In this document: one piece after another, positions 1-7,507 of the stretch | Layout of the letters: each line of letters starts with the position of its first letter | Position numbering within the stretch: the stretch's first letter is position 1 | Assembly: GCA_015069395.1 (NCBI GenBank) | Contig: SVIR01000005.1 | Coordinates: 4,788-68,787 of the forward strand | Length of the DNA: 64,000 bases | Source of the DNA: Clostridiales bacterium | GTDB lineage: Bacteria > Bacillota > Clostridia > Christensenellales > UBA1242 | Reading direction: 5' to 3' | The notes under the pieces: model-generated | Told to the model about the DNA's origin: nothing | Databases searched by the model: none | The model's input: only the letters and a program-made list of their open reading frames with translations | Position numbers and translations under genes: made by a program

Positions 1-2905
1 TGCTAGCAGCATAATTTCCATATACAGTTGCAGTTAATGTATTTACATTTGAAAAAAGTGAAGAACTTGTATACGCATATCCTTGTGTCATATTTCCAGC
101 TAAAACTGCTCCTGCACCAAGAATTTTGTGACTTGCAGTTATTCTTGTCGCATTTTGACCATATACATTCCAAGTCGAAGGATGGTTCTCTAAACTAACA
201 CCAACATTTGATGCCCTCCATCTTATTGGATCACATTTGAACCAATATGTAGCATTTGCACTAAATGTTACGCCATCAATCGTTACGGCCTTTGCTGCTT
301 TTACTGGCACATATGTTCCACCAGTGCTGCTGTAAGTGTATGCCTGCAAAGTTTGATTTGAAGAACCGTTGTTGTACTTGATCGTATATGCCGATGTCAA
401 TTGTGATGTTGTTGCACTATTTAAGCTTGAATTCAACGAACTTCCCACATATGTTTGTGGATATTGTCCACTTTCAAAATAGAAATAGTTTTGTCCAAAA
501 TCTGCTGCAAATTGCAAGGAGTCTCTTCCGGTATTCACAGAACTATCTTTCTGATACTTGATTGGGACATAGTGCGTAGATCCCGTCGCATAACCAGAAA
601 TGTCATATACGATACTATAATATCCACTTTCGTATGCTTCATAGCCAGAATACCAATAAAAATAATCAGAATCGTAGTTGTTGTAAGGCTCTATATACCC
701 CTCACTTTCGTCTATATATCCAAAAACAGCATCGTCACAACTCACTTCTGAATCAAGATAAATATGAAATGTCAAAGTCTTGTCTGTTGCTTGCTTAGTG
801 AAATAGAAATAAGTAAATGCTGCACCGTCATGTTGGCCATAAATTTGGCTTTCATATAGACCTGCATCATTCACAGCAAAGTCATTGTCATTGTAGTTTG
901 ATATGTATGTATCTGTTCTATCATTTCCATATTTTAATGGATTTGTGTTCTTTCTTAAGTAAATATAAATTGATGCAGATGTAGTGCTAGTAGATATACT
1001 AAGAGAATAACTTGGAGATTGCACCGAAGTCGTATATGAAGGGGTTGTTGCTGTTGTAATATCGACTAGAGTATATCCTGATGGAAGATTCATACTATAA
1101 ATTGAAAAAGTGCTATTTCGAGAAACATTTGTAAACTGTAAAGATGCTGTTATCGTCGCAGTTTCACTACTTACTCCAGATTGCTGGACTGCAGCATTTG
1201 AAGTTGTGTTGGGAGCGTAATAATAATACCGGATAGTCGACGTGACGGCACTATTGGACCACGTTGTCCCATCAGTGGAGGTCTTTTGATAAATGGTAAC
1301 CGTCGCAGAAAGAGGTCTCCATTTTGCATATAAAGTCTCATTTCCCGTTGTTGTTTTTGTTGTTGATGTTGTTACTTGTGTTGAATATCCACTCTTAAAC
1401 CAACCTACAAATGTGTATCCTGTTCTTACAACGTTTGTTGGAACTCCGTATGTGCTATCAAATGCAACTGTTATTGATGTAATCGCTGTTCCACTTGAGT
1501 TGTATGCTGTTCCACTGTTTGTTGAAAGTGTAACAGTGTATGAAATTGGTGTCCATTGCGCATATAGGCTTCTGCTAGATGCTGTATAATTTGTTGTAGA
1601 AGAAGTTATCTGACTTCCACCACTTGTAGCAGTGTACCACCCCTTAAATGTATAACCCGTTCTTGTTGGAGTTGGCAATGTGCCATAAGTAGATGCATAA
1701 GTGATAGATTTATAAGCATATGTAGTTAAACTAGAATATGAATAACTATAAGAAGAGAGGTTTGAAGAACTAAAAGTCCCTCCTTGAACATAAAAATAGT
1801 TTGTATAAGAACTTGCCGACCATTGTGCATACAGAGTGTGTCTTGCAGAGTTTGTACATAATGTGCTTGCTGTTACTCTTGAGCCACCACTTGTTGCTGT
1901 ATACCACCCTGAAAAAGAATATCCTGTTCTTGTAGGACTGTAACCCGGCAAATCATAATAACAACCACTAGATGCATAAGGGGTTTCTGTATATACATAT
2001 CTCCTTGCAGTACTTAAAAGTTCTTGAGCTGCAGATGCCAATGTTGCAGAATAGATATGGGTGTGTTCCATTGATGTATCTATTTGATTTTGCATACGCT
2101 CTGCCGAACCACCATAATAATATGTTGATCCGTCATAAGTTATAGACCCATTATAACCATATCGGTTTGAAGTATTATATGCAGTATAATACGACACAGC
2201 ACTTGAATCTGTCGATACTACCAAAGCCCCTCCCCAACCTTCTTCTGTTGTCGCATATCCAACATATTTGTATGCAGATCCAGAATAAGACGGAGTATAA
2301 AAATTTCTGCCACCTAAAGTGCACAAAGTTCTACTATAAGTAGTACAATTTTGCGAAGAGCTCTGCGAACCCGTGAATGACCCATTGTATGCATCATAGG
2401 TCACCGTCGTAACACCAGGACCCTCGCGACAAGAAATCAGCCAGTCGCTCGTCCTATCGCCAGAGCCTATCTTAACCCAAATTTCTTTAAATGTCGTACT
2501 ATAACCACTTCCAGTGTGGTCCGACCAACAATCATGCTCATAGGTGTAATTATATGCATACCAACTTCTCATTCTTACTATATCCCCGCTGGTAAAAGTA
2601 AAAGAGCTATAGTTTGATCCCGAATCCGGAGTACAGTTTGAATTTTCTCTAGTATACAAAGTATATTTGTGTGATCCATTAACATAAATATACAATCTAT
2701 CATCAGTAGTAATGCCCAAATATAAGATCCTTCTAGTGACTTGCACCCCAACTTTTTCGTCTTCAGGATTTTCTGTTTCGCCCTCTTCAGAGAAACCACC
2801 TTTTGTTTCTGTGCCAATAGAATTGTCAACAAGAACCACGGTGCCACTAATAGTACACCCCAGCCCCAACAAAATCATTAAAATTGCAATAAGATACTTT
2901 TTCAT
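1..2905 (-). CDS. secreted Flg_new (Listeria-Bacteroides type) repeat surface protein, paralog A; 3' end lies beyond the window edge
   Basis: Own minus-strand translation from ATG at 2905..2903 gives the signal-like N-terminus MKKYLIAILMILLGLGCTISG. Repeats TGYTFKGWYTATSGG and TGYTFVGWFKSG are present. The C-terminal part is collinear with the 3000..6440 product (YWFKCDPIRWRA, KILGAGAVL, GYAYTSSSLFSNVN). It is absent from the ORF track because no stop codon lies inside the window. Confidence 0.8.
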   Translation of the reverse strand, partial: MKKYLIAILMILLGLGCTISGTVVLVDNSIGTETKGGFSEEGETENPEDEKVGVQVTRRILYLGITTDDRLYIYVNGSHKYTLYTRENSNCTPDSGSNYSSFTFTSGDIVRMRSWYAYNYTYEHDCWSDHTGSGYSTTFKEIWVKIGSGDRTSDWLISCREGPGVTTVTYDAYNGSFTGSQSSSQNCTTYSRTLCTLGGRNFYTPSYSGSAYKYVGYATTEEGWGGALVVSTDSSAVSYYTAYNTSNRYGYNGSITYDGSTYYYGGSAERMQNQIDTSMEHTHIYSATLASAAQELLSTARRYVYTETPYASSGCYYDLPGYSPTRTGYSFSGWYTATSGGSRVTASTLCTNSARHTLYAQWSASSYTNYFYVQGGTFSSSNLSSYSYSYSSLTTYAYKSITYASTYGTLPTPTRTGYTFKGWYTATSGGSQITSSTTNYTASSRSLYAQWTPISYTVTLSTNSGTAYNSSGTAITSITVAFDSTYGVPTNVVRTGYTFVGWFKSGYSTQVTTSTTKTTTGNETLYAKWRPLSATVTIYQKTSTDGTTWSNSAVTSTIRYYYYAPNTTSNAAVQQSGVSSETATITASLQFTNVSRNSTFSIYSMNLPSGYTLVDITTATTPSYTTSVQSPSYSLSISTSTTSASIYIYLRKNTNPLKYGNDRTDTYISNYNDNDFAVNDAGLYESQIYGQHDGAAFTYFYFTKQATDKTLTFHIYLDSEVSCDDAVFGYIDESEGYIEPYNNYDSDYFYWYSGYEAYESGYYSIVYDISGYATGSTHYVPIKYQKDSSVNTGRDSLQFAADFGQNYFYFESGQYPQTYVGSSLNSSLNSATTSQLTSAYTIKYNNGSSNQTLQAYTYSSTGGTYVPVKAAKAVTIDGVTFSANATYWFKCDPIRWRASNVGVSLENHPSTWNVYGQNATRITASHKILGAGAVLAGNMTQGYAYTSSSLFSNVNTLTATVYGNYAAS

Positions 2906-2958
2906 ATTTTTATTATATACATAAAATCAGTTTTTCTCAAAACGATTTGCCCCTCCTT
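2902..2958 (-). promoter_or_regulatory. conserved 5' leader of paralog A: either SD + 12-codon uORF (MRKTDFMYIIKI) ending in an ATGA overlap with the main start, or a sigmaA promoter TTGAGA-17-TATAAT placed 6 nt before the ATG (leaderless)
   Basis: Minus strand reads AAGGAGGGGCAAATCGTT TTG AGA AAA ACT GAT TTT ATG TAT ATA ATA AAA ATA TGA, where the final ATGA contains the main ATG (2905). There is no SD directly before the main ATG. The same architecture occurs at 6437..6488. Confidence 0.5.
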
Positions 2959-2967
2959 TTCAAAGAA

Positions 2968-3000
2968 ACAAAAAAAGACGATATAAAAATCGTCTTTTTT
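2968..3000 (-). terminator. rho-independent terminator of the 3000..6440 gene
   Basis: Hairpin agacgat(2976-2982)/atcgtct(2989-2995) with a 6-nt loop. It is flanked by an A-run and a T-run, and on the minus strand the stem is followed by a U-tract. Confidence 0.75.
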
Positions 3001-6000
3001 TAAACTCTCATACCTTTTGACATATGAACAGCCAAACGATATCCATTCATTTTGTTTGCCCATAAGTTGCACGTCTTTCCACTTGCATTAATTCCTCTCA
3101 TTGAATTTATGTTTGATCCCAAGTTTCTTAACAAATATTCTCCCGTTTCAGTTGTCGATGTTTTGCCTAAAAGTAATGCTGAGAATGTCGTATATGAAGC
3201 CTGATAATTTGTTAAATTATCGTCTAAATTTGCTTCTCCTGCAACCATTACTGAAGCTGTAACATTTGCACTTGAAACCCCAACTTGACTAGAAGTACCT
3301 GTAAAAGTTTCACAAGACCAACTTGCTGATTTTGCGTAACTACCATATACCGTGGCAGTCAAAGAATTTACATTTGAATAAAGCGAAGAGCTTGTATATG
3401 CATATCCTTGAGACATTTTTCCATTTAAAACTGCTCCTGCTCCCAAAATCTTGTGGCTTACAACGGTAAAGTTTGAAACAATCTGCCCATAATTTGCCCA
3501 CTTGCTTGGACTTGTGCCTGAAGATGCGCCAAAATCAGAAACTCTCCATTTGATTGGCTCACTCTTAAACCAATATTTGCTTCCCGAAGAGAATGTTACT
3601 CCATCGATTGTAACCGTCTTTGGTGCTGTAACTTGTACATATGTTGTTCCATTATATGTATATGCATTCAATGTTTTGTTTGTTGAGCCATCATTGTATT
3701 TGATTGTATATACCACACTTCCCAACTGTGATGCAACCAAACCGTTAAGGGTTGTATTCATTGAGCTTCCTACATAGCTTTGTGGATATTGTCCATCTTC
3801 AAAATACCAATAGCCCGTTCCAAAGTCTGGTTTAAACTGCAATGAGTCGTTATTACTATGAACAGATCCGTCTTTTCTATATTTTATATAAATATAGTGT
3901 GACGAGTTGTTTGCCAAAGAAGATATATCATATGTTACTGTTTGAACTGTAGCTTTTGATTCAGAAGAACTAAACTTTTTCTTTACATTGGTTGTATCTG
4001 CAGTATTGCTTAAGGCCAATGTCGTATCAATATTACTTAAAATTCCATAGTCACAACAAGGTTCGCCATAATTTATACAATTCATTGTCAAAGTTGTTTG
4101 TCCTGCTTTTTTTGTAAAGTTGAATTTTGTCAGAGAATAACTGCTATTGACTCCTTGGTTTGAGCTTTCGTAATAACCAGAACTATTCAATGTAAATCCA
4201 TATGTCACCCCAGAAATAGCCTCTGTAGAATATGTTACATTATCCTCTCCCCATTTTATTGGGTTTTGTACTTTTGTCAACCACAAGTTGATATATTCTG
4301 TCTGCGACGAAGTTGATATGGAAATATATCCACTCGTCACTTTTGTCGAGCTTCCACTCGGGGCAGACGCCGAAGATCCACTGTTTATACCATACACAAC
4401 ATAATCTGTTGGAACTGATTTTATTGTTATACTCGCAGAATGTCCTCTAGCAAAACTGCCTAAAGAAGTTTGCCCTGTCACAGAAACAGTCCCTGAGTTT
4501 GAGGTGACTGCATCGCCGCCATAGTAATAATCGTCCACATTAGATTCCGAGCCTGTGTCTCCCGATTTTGTAATTGAAATGGTACCCGATGTCAGAGTGT
4601 TCCACGTTGACCCGTCAGTAGTATAATATGGCGTTATATATAAAGTATTGTTGTAGGGGACCCAAACCTCAAAGAGTTCGCCGCCTCCGGCATAATCCCA
4701 AGTCGAATCCATCGTAAGAACTTCACCTGAATTATATGGATCACCCCAACCATAGAAATAGCATCCTGTCTTGCTGATTTCCATATACTCAAAATAGTCC
4801 AGATAACCCCACTCATCACTATAAGCCTCTGCCTCCCACAAAGAAGCTCCGTATGCGACTTGAATATAAGAGATTTGGTCTCCATATATTGATGCACTGG
4901 ATTGATTATAGTCCATATCATTATCGTATAAATAAACCGTATATGTATTTGGCAACCAATAAGCATAGAGCGTTGTGTTTCCTGCCGTGTTGTATGTATA
5001 AGAATAGTTGCAACGCTTATAGCTTGACAAACTCGTTGAAGAAGTGCTCCAATATGCTAAATAGTGTCCGGTTTTAGTGAAAGTAGTGTTTGGTTTTGTG
5101 GTATAACTAGATCCATATGTAACAGATTGTGTAACGGCTGAACCCGATCCTCCATTTGGTTGATATGTAATTGTATAAGAATTTGCTGTCCATTGAGCAT
5201 ACAATGTGATATTGTCACTGCCGATGTTCGAAACGATTGTGCTGCCCGTTACTTTTGTTCCACCACTTGTTGCTGTGTACCAGCCAGCAAATCTATATCC
5301 ATCTCTTTTTGGATCAAACATAGGAGTAGACAAATAACCTGAGGCCGGCATATCCAAATAAACATACGTAGATCCATATGTAACAAACCTCCGTGCAGCC
5401 TCTTCAAGAGTCGCATCCATATAATGAGTATAGTCCTTTATAGTATCAAAGCCCCCAGATAGCCTCATACATTCTCCAGCCCCGCCATAATAATAGGTAT
5501 ATCCATTATAGGTAAATGTACCATCATATCCATAACGCCCTGAAGGATTGTATGCCGTATACCATTGCATATTAGAATCTCTCGAAACAACCAATGCTCC
5601 AGACCAAGACTCTCGTGTGGTCGCCCACCCCCTGTATCTTGGGTAACTTAGAGTTTGCGCTGGGATATAAAAATTTCTTCCTCCAATACAACACAATGTA
5701 GTAGAAGCCGAGGATGTATTAGCTGTAACATCCGATGCCGATGAACTTACAAATGTGCCATTGTTTGATCTAAACGTAACAGTCCTTTCGTCGGCAGTAG
5801 AATCGTTCATAATAAGAACTCTGCTCCTAACCGAAGTTGTGCCCACTTTAAAATACAAAGATTTATATGACATGAGGGGTGAATCAGAAGAATAAAGATC
5901 GTGAGTAAACCAATAATTTCCATAAAAATGATCAGTAAATTGTATAATATCTCCTGAATTAAACGTAAATGAAGTATAATTTGAACTGCCTGAATAATCC

Positions 6001-6440
6001 GGATTTGAATCACAAGCCAACAATTCGTGTGTCAAGGTGCCATTTACATAAATACGAAGCCAGTCGTTTGTATATCTGCCTGAATAGCAAATGCTCATAG
6101 TCAACTTGCCTTCAACAAGTTCTGCTTTTGCATTTACATCTCCTTGTCCAGAGACACCTTCGGCAGCATCCAACTCTGCTTTCACTTCAGCAAAAGATTT
6201 TTGATTAACCAATCTGCCTGGCGCACAATTTGGATCAGTGTACTCTGTAACATCAGGGACGATAAAATTTTCGTTGTTGTTTTCTTCTTCAGGAGAATCT
6301 TCTAAAGACTGATCGGGAGTCTCTTGAGAGGCCCCTTCGTTTGATGTTGATTGAGGATAAAGCGACAATACAGTTGTTCCACCTATTGTGCAACCCAATC
6401 CAAACAAAATCATAAAAATTGCAACAAGATATCTTTTCAT
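3000..6440 (-). CDS. secreted surface protein, paralog B, with Flg_new repeats and a DUF6273-like C-terminus
   Basis: 1146-aa ORF with N-terminal signal MKRYLVAIFMILFGLGCTIGG. Flg_new-type repeats include GYRFAGWYTATSGGTKV..LYAQW and TGHYLAYWST..LYAYW. The C-terminal region has YWFKSEPIKWRV and GYRLAVHM, which resemble DUF6273 as I recall it (family assignment from memory). Confidence 0.8.
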   Translation of the reverse strand: MKRYLVAIFMILFGLGCTIGGTTVLSLYPQSTSNEGASQETPDQSLEDSPEEENNNENFIVPDVTEYTDPNCAPGRLVNQKSFAEVKAELDAAEGVSGQGDVNAKAELVEGKLTMSICYSGRYTNDWLRIYVNGTLTHELLACDSNPDYSGSSNYTSFTFNSGDIIQFTDHFYGNYWFTHDLYSSDSPLMSYKSLYFKVGTTSVRSRVLIMNDSTADERTVTFRSNNGTFVSSSASDVTANTSSASTTLCCIGGRNFYIPAQTLSYPRYRGWATTRESWSGALVVSRDSNMQWYTAYNPSGRYGYDGTFTYNGYTYYYGGAGECMRLSGGFDTIKDYTHYMDATLEEAARRFVTYGSTYVYLDMPASGYLSTPMFDPKRDGYRFAGWYTATSGGTKVTGSTIVSNIGSDNITLYAQWTANSYTITYQPNGGSGSAVTQSVTYGSSYTTKPNTTFTKTGHYLAYWSTSSTSLSSYKRCNYSYTYNTAGNTTLYAYWLPNTYTVYLYDNDMDYNQSSASIYGDQISYIQVAYGASLWEAEAYSDEWGYLDYFEYMEISKTGCYFYGWGDPYNSGEVLTMDSTWDYAGGGELFEVWVPYNNTLYITPYYTTDGSTWNTLTSGTISITKSGDTGSESNVDDYYYGGDAVTSNSGTVSVTGQTSLGSFARGHSASITIKSVPTDYVVYGINSGSSASAPSGSSTKVTSGYISISTSSQTEYINLWLTKVQNPIKWGEDNVTYSTEAISGVTYGFTLNSSGYYESSNQGVNSSYSLTKFNFTKKAGQTTLTMNCINYGEPCCDYGILSNIDTTLALSNTADTTNVKKKFSSSESKATVQTVTYDISSLANNSSHYIYIKYRKDGSVHSNNDSLQFKPDFGTGYWYFEDGQYPQSYVGSSMNTTLNGLVASQLGSVVYTIKYNDGSTNKTLNAYTYNGTTYVQVTAPKTVTIDGVTFSSGSKYWFKSEPIKWRVSDFGASSGTSPSKWANYGQIVSNFTVVSHKILGAGAVLNGKMSQGYAYTSSSLYSNVNSLTATVYGSYAKSASWSCETFTGTSSQVGVSSANVTASVMVAGEANLDDNLTNYQASYTTFSALLLGKTSTTETGEYLLRNLGSNINSMRGINASGKTCNLWANKMNGYRLAVHMSKGMRV

Positions 6441-6488
6441 ATGTATATTATATACATAAATTCAGTTTTTTTCAAAACGATTCCTCCT
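6437..6488 (-). promoter_or_regulatory. conserved 5' leader of paralog B: either AGGAGG SD + 12-codon uORF (MKKTEFMYIIYI) ending in an ATGA overlap, or sigmaA promoter TTGAAA-17-TATAAT-6-ATG (leaderless)
   Basis: Minus strand reads GCAGGAGGAATCGTT TTG AAA AAA ACT GAA TTT ATG TAT ATA ATA TAC ATA TGA. The TGA overlaps the main ATG (6440). TTGAAA lies at 6475..6470 and TATAAT at 6452..6447. Confidence 0.5.
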
Positions 6489-6510
6489 GCTGGCACAAAA
6501 ATTTTTCAAA

Positions 6511-6540
6511 AAAACAAAAAGCATCAAGTTTGATGCCTTT
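6511..6540 (-). terminator. rho-independent terminator after ftsQ
   Basis: Stem gcatca(6521-6526)/tgatgc(6531-6536). On the minus strand it is followed by TTTTTGTTTTTTT. Confidence 0.65.
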
Positions 6541-7507
6541 ATTTTTTTACAAATGAATAATATATGTCGTTTTCTGAACGATTTATATGTTCGGTCAAAG
6601 TGAAATTGTCAATTTTGATAATACAATCAGAAATCAAGTTCTTGCTCAATGGCACTTTTTTTGTAGGTTCACCGATTTCTTCATTAAAAAGCACATACTC
6701 GCCACTTTCCGTCTCTTCAACATAAATAATCTGACCGTTTTTGTCTATCAAATTTCCAAAACCGTCTAAGTCGTGAGAATATATAGTGCTTTCAACAGCA
6801 AACATCTTTTGCACTTTGCTCGCAAAAGCAAAATCCGGGTTGTTTATTTGATATTCTTTTCCCTCAAAAGTAACAAGCTTCATAGAAATATATTCTTTTG
6901 ATGTAATTTCGTCTTGATATTTTGAAAGGCTTATTTTTTTAAACTTGCCAATTTGCTGGGCAAGACTGCGATTGTTTTGCAACATTACACTATAAAATTT
7001 TTTCAAACATTCTTCTTCAACTGACAAAAAGTCTCCGATTTGCACCTCAGAACTGGTTATTGTCAAGCCTTCAACTAAAATAGGGTTTTCAGTTTCGCTT
7101 TCAAACGAATCCAAGACCTTTAAAACTCTTAAATCTCTGTCACAAACGAGATATTGAGAATTTATTTTTATTGCAAAAAGCTCTTCTCTTTCAGCAATAT
7201 GCACAACAAATTTGTTTGGAAAAATAGTTTCAATATTTATCACTCTTATATAAGCAAAATTTTCATTTTTTTTTGCTTTTTCGTTTATTTTGTCGATTGA
7301 TTTTTTCTTTCCTTCAAACAAAACACTTGCACCAAGCCTAAATTCGCCTGCTTCAACAATTTCTTCTTCTGTTACTGTCAAATTTTTGGTAGTAGATTTA
7401 AAATTTATAGAAACTGAAGAAAGCCCAAAAAGAGTCCAAAAAGAGATTAGCACTGACGCCAAAACAACTATAGCTATAGAAATTGTAATAATCCACTTTT
7501 TGCTCAT
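6539..7507 (-). CDS. ftsQ: cell division protein FtsQ/DivIB
   Basis: Single N-terminal TM helix (WIITISIAIVVLASVLISFW) followed by a POTRA-like region (FAYIRVINIETIFPNKFVVHIAEREELFAI). It occupies the terminal position of the dcw cluster. Confidence 0.7.
   Translation of the reverse strand: MSKKWIITISIAIVVLASVLISFWTLFGLSSVSINFKSTTKNLTVTEEEIVEAGEFRLGASVLFEGKKKSIDKINEKAKKNENFAYIRVINIETIFPNKFVVHIAEREELFAIKINSQYLVCDRDLRVLKVLDSFESETENPILVEGLTITSSEVQIGDFLSVEEECLKKFYSVMLQNNRSLAQQIGKFKKISLSKYQDEITSKEYISMKLVTFEGKEYQINNPDFAFASKVQKMFAVESTIYSHDLDGFGNLIDKNGQIIYVEETESGEYVLFNEEIGEPTKKVPLSKNLISDCIIKIDNFTLTEHINRSENDIYYSFVKK

Follow-up and report, generated by a model that had tools for sequence, protein, structure and literature searches.

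Three paralogous surface-protein genes of an uncultured member of the Clostridia probably (we put it at about 80%) each carry a σ70/σA-type promoter that places position +1 on the ATG and gives a leaderless mRNA. We infer this transcription start from three observations: the promoter geometry, the enrichment of genes of the same layout in the genome, and the comparison of the paralogs; the mode of translation is taken from published work. Each copy has its own TTGAAA or TTGAGA, 17-bp spacer and TATAAT. With 6 bp between the end of the −10 box and the ATG, transcription should begin at the A of the start codon. [quoted passage not shown] Copies A and B would form insulated units consisting of a terminator, a promoter and an ATG at +1. 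A short frame of 12 codons that ends on the ATG would be the spelling that this promoter geometry takes when the −35 hexamer begins with TTG and the second codon of the gene begins with A.

Genes, promoters and terminators of the three paralogs

The window is the whole stretch of DNA that was analysed (64,000 nt). It comes from a genome of 934,818 bp (0.93 Mb) in 19 contigs, with 33.9% GC. All the surface-protein genes discussed in it, copies A and B, lie on its minus strand, and the third paralog (C) is outside the window, on contig C12 (G000:C12), with its ATG at 6570 and 1135 aa. The features of copies A and B are the following.

3000..6440, minus strand: gene B, 1146 aa, putative lipoprotein (MKRYLVAIFMILFGLGC...) with Flg_new repeats
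6438..6440, minus strand: main ATG of gene B; the A at 6440 is the predicted +1, from the geometry and the class-level peak at a 6-nt gap
6447..6452, minus strand: −10 hexamer TATAAT of copy B, separated from the −35 by 17 nt and from the ATG by 6 nt
6470..6475, minus strand: −35 hexamer TTGAAA of copy B; its TTG doubles as the putative start codon of an upstream ORF (uORF)
6505..6540, minus strand: intrinsic terminator of the ftsQ-like gene, a stem-loop (6540..6517) followed by TTTTTGTTTTTTT; −11.4 kcal/mol, z = −3.4
2..2905, minus strand: gene A, tandem paralog of gene B, 1083 aa in the genome, continuing beyond the window
2912..2917, minus strand: −10 hexamer TATAAT of copy A, with a 17-nt spacer to the −35 and a 6-nt gap to the ATG at 2905
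2935..2940, minus strand: −35 hexamer TTGAGA of copy A, from a consensus scan
2969..3002, minus strand: intrinsic terminator of gene B, directly before the copy A promoter; −14.6 kcal/mol, z = −6.6

The N-terminus of gene B is of the lipoprotein type (MKRYLVAIFMILFGLGC), and its repeats are of the Flg_new (Listeria-Bacteroides) family. The protein bodies of the three paralogs are 45–63% identical, gene B being nearer to C (63% identity) than to A. We searched 5.8 billion proteins with the N-terminal 360 aa of gene B and matched only its own protein and paralog C. Related-locus searches of metagenome and genome contigs, and an exact-pattern scan of metagenome contigs, gave nothing for the leaders. 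The genes were found on one other contig (L051), where the leaders are identical. In all the collections searched, these matches place the family in this species only. The C-terminal part of gene B (residues ~826–1146, window 3000–3960) is 34–41% identical to the C-termini of several proteins of ~1000–1350 aa from other species of the genus (G008, G004, G019). These C-terminal ~300 aa have no Pfam match, and they may represent a lineage-specific shared C-terminal domain. A fragment at the edge of a 3.3-kb contig (G000:C9:3104-3313) shares 86% identity with the final 70 residues of gene B; it may belong to a fourth paralog whose 5′ end is unassembled.

The start codons of genes A and C in the public gene calls are the leaderless-type ATGs. 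The public call for gene B (P0001; L051:3001) begins instead at an in-frame ATG nine codons downstream, giving 1137 aa rather than 1146 aa, and drops MKRYLVAIF (window 6414-6440, minus strand) from the signal peptide. We rejected a start at this residue (M10), since it has no SD either and would cost the signal peptide its charged n-region.

The promoters match the consensus at 11 of 12 positions in both copy A and copy B. The leader of paralog C (TTGAAAAAGATTGATTTTATGTATATAATAAAAGTATGA) has the same layout, TTGAAA-17-TATAAT-6-ATGA, including an open 12-codon frame. An 11/12 promoter in the exact leaderless register is found in all three copies, the −10 ending 6 nt before the ATG and the −35 standing at 17 bp. 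Copy B also has a T at −1. None of the three main ATGs is preceded by an SD, and a single G interrupts the A and T of the 20 nt upstream. The sequence-only reading of the window had reported the lack of an SD before the ATGs at 6440 and 2905, as well as the series TTGAAA/TTGAGA, 17 nt, TATAAT, 6 nt, ATG; all of these bases and distances are correct. In this AT-rich region promoter-like hexamer pairs as such are not enriched (18 found, 15.1 expected). Copy B further contains a perfect 8-1-8 palindrome, ATGTATAT-A-ATATACAT (window 6441-6457, minus strand), which spans the −10 and the discriminator and ends on the base that precedes the ATG; it is absent from copies A and C.

The gene upstream of B is an ORF of 322 aa (6539-7507, minus strand) that follows murA and has one N-terminal hydrophobic segment. 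It had been labelled ftsQ, a name for which gene order alone speaks: Pfam gave nothing for the protein at E ≤ 0.001, and a search for relatives among the contigs returned none. Its terminator and that of gene B each combine a stable stem with a long U-tract. Because these terminators lie directly upstream of the promoters, A and B are separate transcription units, and the adjoining terminators argue against abundant read-through into their leaders. Between the leader of paralog C and the preceding terminator there are ~230 nt of AT-rich DNA. Upstream of paralog C there is also a 33-codon ORF (MEKQRKTEFKIICVKAPRWIAPFLKLFYKKDEH), between the trxB-like gene and a terminator (G000:C12:6232-6333, plus strand). 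A search of window 2800-6700 against Rfam gave no family at gathering score, and the sub-threshold matches fall on the terminators.

Leaderless-type genes across the genome

We measured the distance between −10-like hexamers and start codons in 709 non-overlapping ORFs of at least 120 aa, each taken from its first start codon, which is a crude longest-ORF call. A hexamer was accepted when at least 5 of its 6 bases matched, with A2 and T6 required, and the gap was counted from its end to the start codon. A gap of 6 occurs in 46 of the 709 ORFs, while the other gaps average 11.9 (sd 4.6, maximum 25; z = 7.4); the background expected within the 46 is about 12. Exact TATAAT hexamers show the same peak (16 at gap 6 versus about 2 at other gaps). 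Full promoters (at least 10/12) form a spike of 19 at gap 6 and a second, broad hump at gaps 17–30, which corresponds to SD-led genes with short leaders.

The gap-6 ORFs have other traits in common. Their start codon is ATG in 43 of 46 cases, and 43 of 46 have a T at −1, versus 55% of the remaining ORFs. At −35, 25 of the 46 have TTG, compared with 85 of the 663 others. Overall, about 40 genes of the whole genome (G000) have the arrangement of −35, 16–18 nt, −10, 6 nt and ATG. The leaderless-type class thus amounts to roughly 5–6% of long ORFs and to 19 of the 176 strong promoter matches. By their N-termini, its members include housekeeping genes: uvrC, ruvC, murB, truA and a trxB-like gene. 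In most of the remaining genes an SD core lies close to a candidate start, and CCTCC is found at the 16S 3′ end. An SD-led majority next to a leaderless-type class suggests that the organism uses both modes.

The class extends beyond this genome. In sampled stretches of two congeners we found the gap-6 peak again (8 versus 1.9 in G008, 7 versus 2.3 in G011); two genomes from other families of the order lack it. The same promoter-to-ATG layout is seen at the uvrC and trxB-like genes in further species of the genus. DNA similar to the leader in other species belongs to unrelated proteins and was therefore rejected as a source of orthologous leaders; it shows only that the leaderless layout is genus-wide. 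The proposal that the paralogs have leaderless promoters, one of two made from the sequence of the window, is thereby supported by the canonical geometry, the insulating terminators, paralog C, and the class found in the genome and its congeners.

The 12-codon frame, the SD-like run and the conserved cassette

The other proposal concerned a coupled uORF over the same bases, preceded by an SD-like run. Its elements are as follows.

6437..6475, minus strand: 12-codon frame of copy B from TTG to TGA (MKKTEFMYIIYI), read here as a by-product of the promoter
6483..6488, minus strand: AGGAGG of copy B, 7 nt (aatcgtt) before the TTG and at about −48 to −43 from the predicted transcription start site
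2952..2956, minus strand: GGAGG of copy A, 11 nt before the TTG, a poor SD spacing

The frame of copy B is TTG AAA AAA ACT GAA TTT ATG TAT ATA ATA TAC ATA TGA (MKKTEFMYIIYI); it opens with the TTG at 6475, and its TGA (6439-6437) overlaps the main ATG (6440-6438) as ATGA. That of copy A is TTG AGA AAA ACT GAT TTT ATG TAT ATA ATA AAA ATA TGA (MRKTDFMYIIKI), with the TTG at 2940 and the ATGA at 2905-2902. The 12-codon ORFs, SD spacings and overlaps had been described accurately in every sequence detail. Apart from the SD, these details follow from the promoter. A 6-nt −35, 17 nt, a 6-nt −10 and 6 nt put the first base of the −35 hexamer 35 nt before the ATG, hence exactly 36 nt (12 codons) before the TGA of ATGA. 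The frame reads TATAAT as (TA)T ATA AT(A), with no stop within it. Start codon, length, frame and overlap therefore result from a −35 TTG, the 17 + 6 + 6 nt and an A as the first base of the second codon. The sequence ATGA is carried by 30 of the 43 leaderless-type genes that start with ATG, since lysine is more common than any other residue at the second codon. Five of these 43 genes have a TTG frame that stays open over 12 codons from the −35: besides the three paralogs, they are two unrelated genes (C2, C17), both lacking an SD. As the same frame occurs in unrelated genes that lack an SD, its start codon, length, frame and overlap carry no independent weight. The overlap of stop and start that a coupled uORF should have is present in all three copies, but it does not discriminate between the readings. 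Among the peptides, three sequences only, 5 changes are non-synonymous and 1 is synonymous; the bases that are invariant among the frames coincide with the −35 and the −10. The 12-codon frame is most likely, in the main, a side effect of promoter spacing.

The SD is the sole element of the uORF that is independent of promoter geometry, and it bears on the alternative that survives best, a leader with two modes. In that case expression would be mostly leaderless, while RNAs reading through from upstream would use the SD-led uORF and reinitiate at AUGA on the main AUG. We regard this switch as possible but unlikely. The AGGAGG of copy B stands 7 nt before its TTG, and GGAGG is present in copy A too. 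TTG is a start codon in use (18 of 157 GGAGG-led genes), the 16S 3′ end has CCTCC, and an internal AUG without an SD on a read-through RNA would need coupling, for which 70S scanning offers a described route (PMC9031893). The spacing tells against it. In the 157 GGAGG-led genes GGAGG lies 4–8 nt from the start in 137 and at 11 nt in none, so that the 7 nt of copy B are within the range of real genes and the 11 nt of copy A are outside it; paralog C has no SD upstream of the TTG. An SD at a functional distance is thus not kept among the related leaders, as only copy B fits. Added to a frame dictated by the geometry, an SD badly spaced in A and missing in C leaves a coupled uORF unsupported as a selected feature. 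Both terminators, with their stable stems and long U-tracts, also count against the switch, and the 5 non-synonymous to 1 synonymous changes, from three sequences, may do so too.

GGAGG is rare in true intergenic DNA of this genome. We searched the 154 species genomes of the genus for GGAGG-N4-11-TTG-N20-TAWAAT-N6-ATGA and retrieved only A, B and one locus in each of the genomes G092 and G162. At both of the latter the upstream gene is divergent, and hence no read-through RNA could use the SD. A control in which GGAGG was moved by 10 nt (to 14–21 nt) gave no matches. Three independent loci with GGAGG 4–11 nt upstream versus none in the shifted control would favour the two-mode leader, but a rough chance estimate is that about 2–3 GGAGG are expected ahead of such promoters across the genus, and the loci are too few to call or dismiss an enrichment. 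The SD-like run is common to A and B by duplication, and the promoter model does not explain it. In copy A (window 2952-2969, minus strand), GGAGGGGC pairs with the U-rich tail (GUUUCUUUG) of the terminator before it in the predicted minimum-energy fold of a read-through RNA. Such pairing would hide the SD-like run in that RNA.

The arrangement resembles termination-reinitiation at AUGA and 70S scanning (PMC9031893) in that the TGA of the short frame overlaps the main ATG and the SD of copy B is suitably spaced. It differs in that overlap and frame here follow from promoter spacing, and in that the SD is conserved neither in position (A) nor in presence (C). If the switch did exist, the same 39 bases would serve as a leaderless promoter and as an SD-led 12-codon ORF on RNAs that escape the terminator. 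There would then be two sources of the lipoprotein, its own promoter and read-through from the dcw cluster or the upstream paralog, a built-in remedy for the silence of a leaderless start codon inside a longer transcript. The coupled uORF would matter more widely only once read-through transcripts, and ribosomes on the short frame, had been demonstrated.

The predicted leaderless promoters are part of a longer conserved unit. In copy B its coding part is the stretch given first below, followed by the three-way identities of the paralogs by position relative to the ATG.

6381..6440, minus strand: signal-peptide coding part of the conserved cassette in copy B; three-way conservation runs from −35 to about +60
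−60..−36: at most 40% identity
−35..−1: 83–89% identity
+1..+60 (signal peptide): 77–83% identity
+60..+120: about 40–67% identity
+120..+240: about 35–40% identity

From this profile the conserved unit spans the −35 hexamer to the end of the signal peptide. The TTGA of the −35 and the TATAAT are invariant in the three paralogs, and the bases that vary belong to the spacer and the discriminator. Further upstream only A and B are alike (AATCGTT, a GGAGG and the terminator tail). The cassette is best read, from these alignments, as promoter, start codon and signal peptide held in common by descent or gene conversion.

The paralogs are nevertheless more alike in the spacer than a mere promoter would demand. 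One may then suppose that the promoter is real but carries an extra layer, for instance the operator of a regulator over the spacer or recurrent gene conversion of a 5′ cassette among the paralogs; in both cases the SD-like run would belong to that site or be a relic. The contrast between 83–89% identity over −35..−1 and 45–63% in the protein bodies points this way, as does the fact that A and B share AATCGTT and the terminator tail even though the body of B is closer to C. The palindrome of copy B across the −10 and the discriminator would suit an operator, but it is lost in A and C, and no regulator was identified. Three sequences, all of one genome, do not allow descent, conversion and selection to be separated, and we consider this extra layer improbable. 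Most improbable of all is that there is no local promoter and that upstream promoters feed an obligatory termination-reinitiation after the SD-led uORF: the SD, TTG and ATGA of copies A and B would fit, but intrinsic terminators separate each gene from its upstream neighbour, paralog C has no SD and lies behind ~230 nt of AT-rich spacer after a terminator, the 11/12 promoter recurs in the exact leaderless register in three copies, and a genome-wide class of leaderless-type genes exists.

Relation to known leaderless architectures

The reading of the three promoters as leaderless agrees with published cases. In the literature, leaderless genes are marked by a Pribnow box 6–8 nt ahead of the start (PMC6028130). 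This position of the box characterizes the 'group C' architecture of GeneMarkS-2, which includes Mycobacterium tuberculosis and Deinococcus deserti (PMC6028130, PMC9031893). In group C genomes, 25–50% of operons are reported to be leaderless, and only 3.4% of Firmicutes genomes belong to the group (PMC6028130). In solventogenic clostridia about 2–3% of transcripts are leaderless (PMC9045289). As in group C, the −10 here ends 6 nt before the ATG, with a −35 at 17 bp and no SD, and the start distances split into leaderless and leadered classes. Unlike in group C, the leaderless-type genes are a minority, about 5–6% of long ORFs rather than 25–50% of operons, and their transcription start sites are predicted. 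The host also differs from M. tuberculosis and D. deserti: it is an uncultured member of the Clostridia with a tiny genome, from a group where such genes are reported to be rare.

The leaderless architecture proposed here is thus a known one, though uncommon in this lineage. Particular to the present case is its setting on a three-member paralog family, in the form of a promoter-plus-signal-peptide cassette, with an SD-like run upstream of the −35 in two of the three copies (A and B). For annotation in this lineage, it means that a true gene start can be an ATG without a ribosome-binding site. The leaderless-type class would also add a genus of tiny-genome gut Clostridia to the bacteria that have a distinct class of leaderless genes, in a phylum where such a class is reported to be rare.
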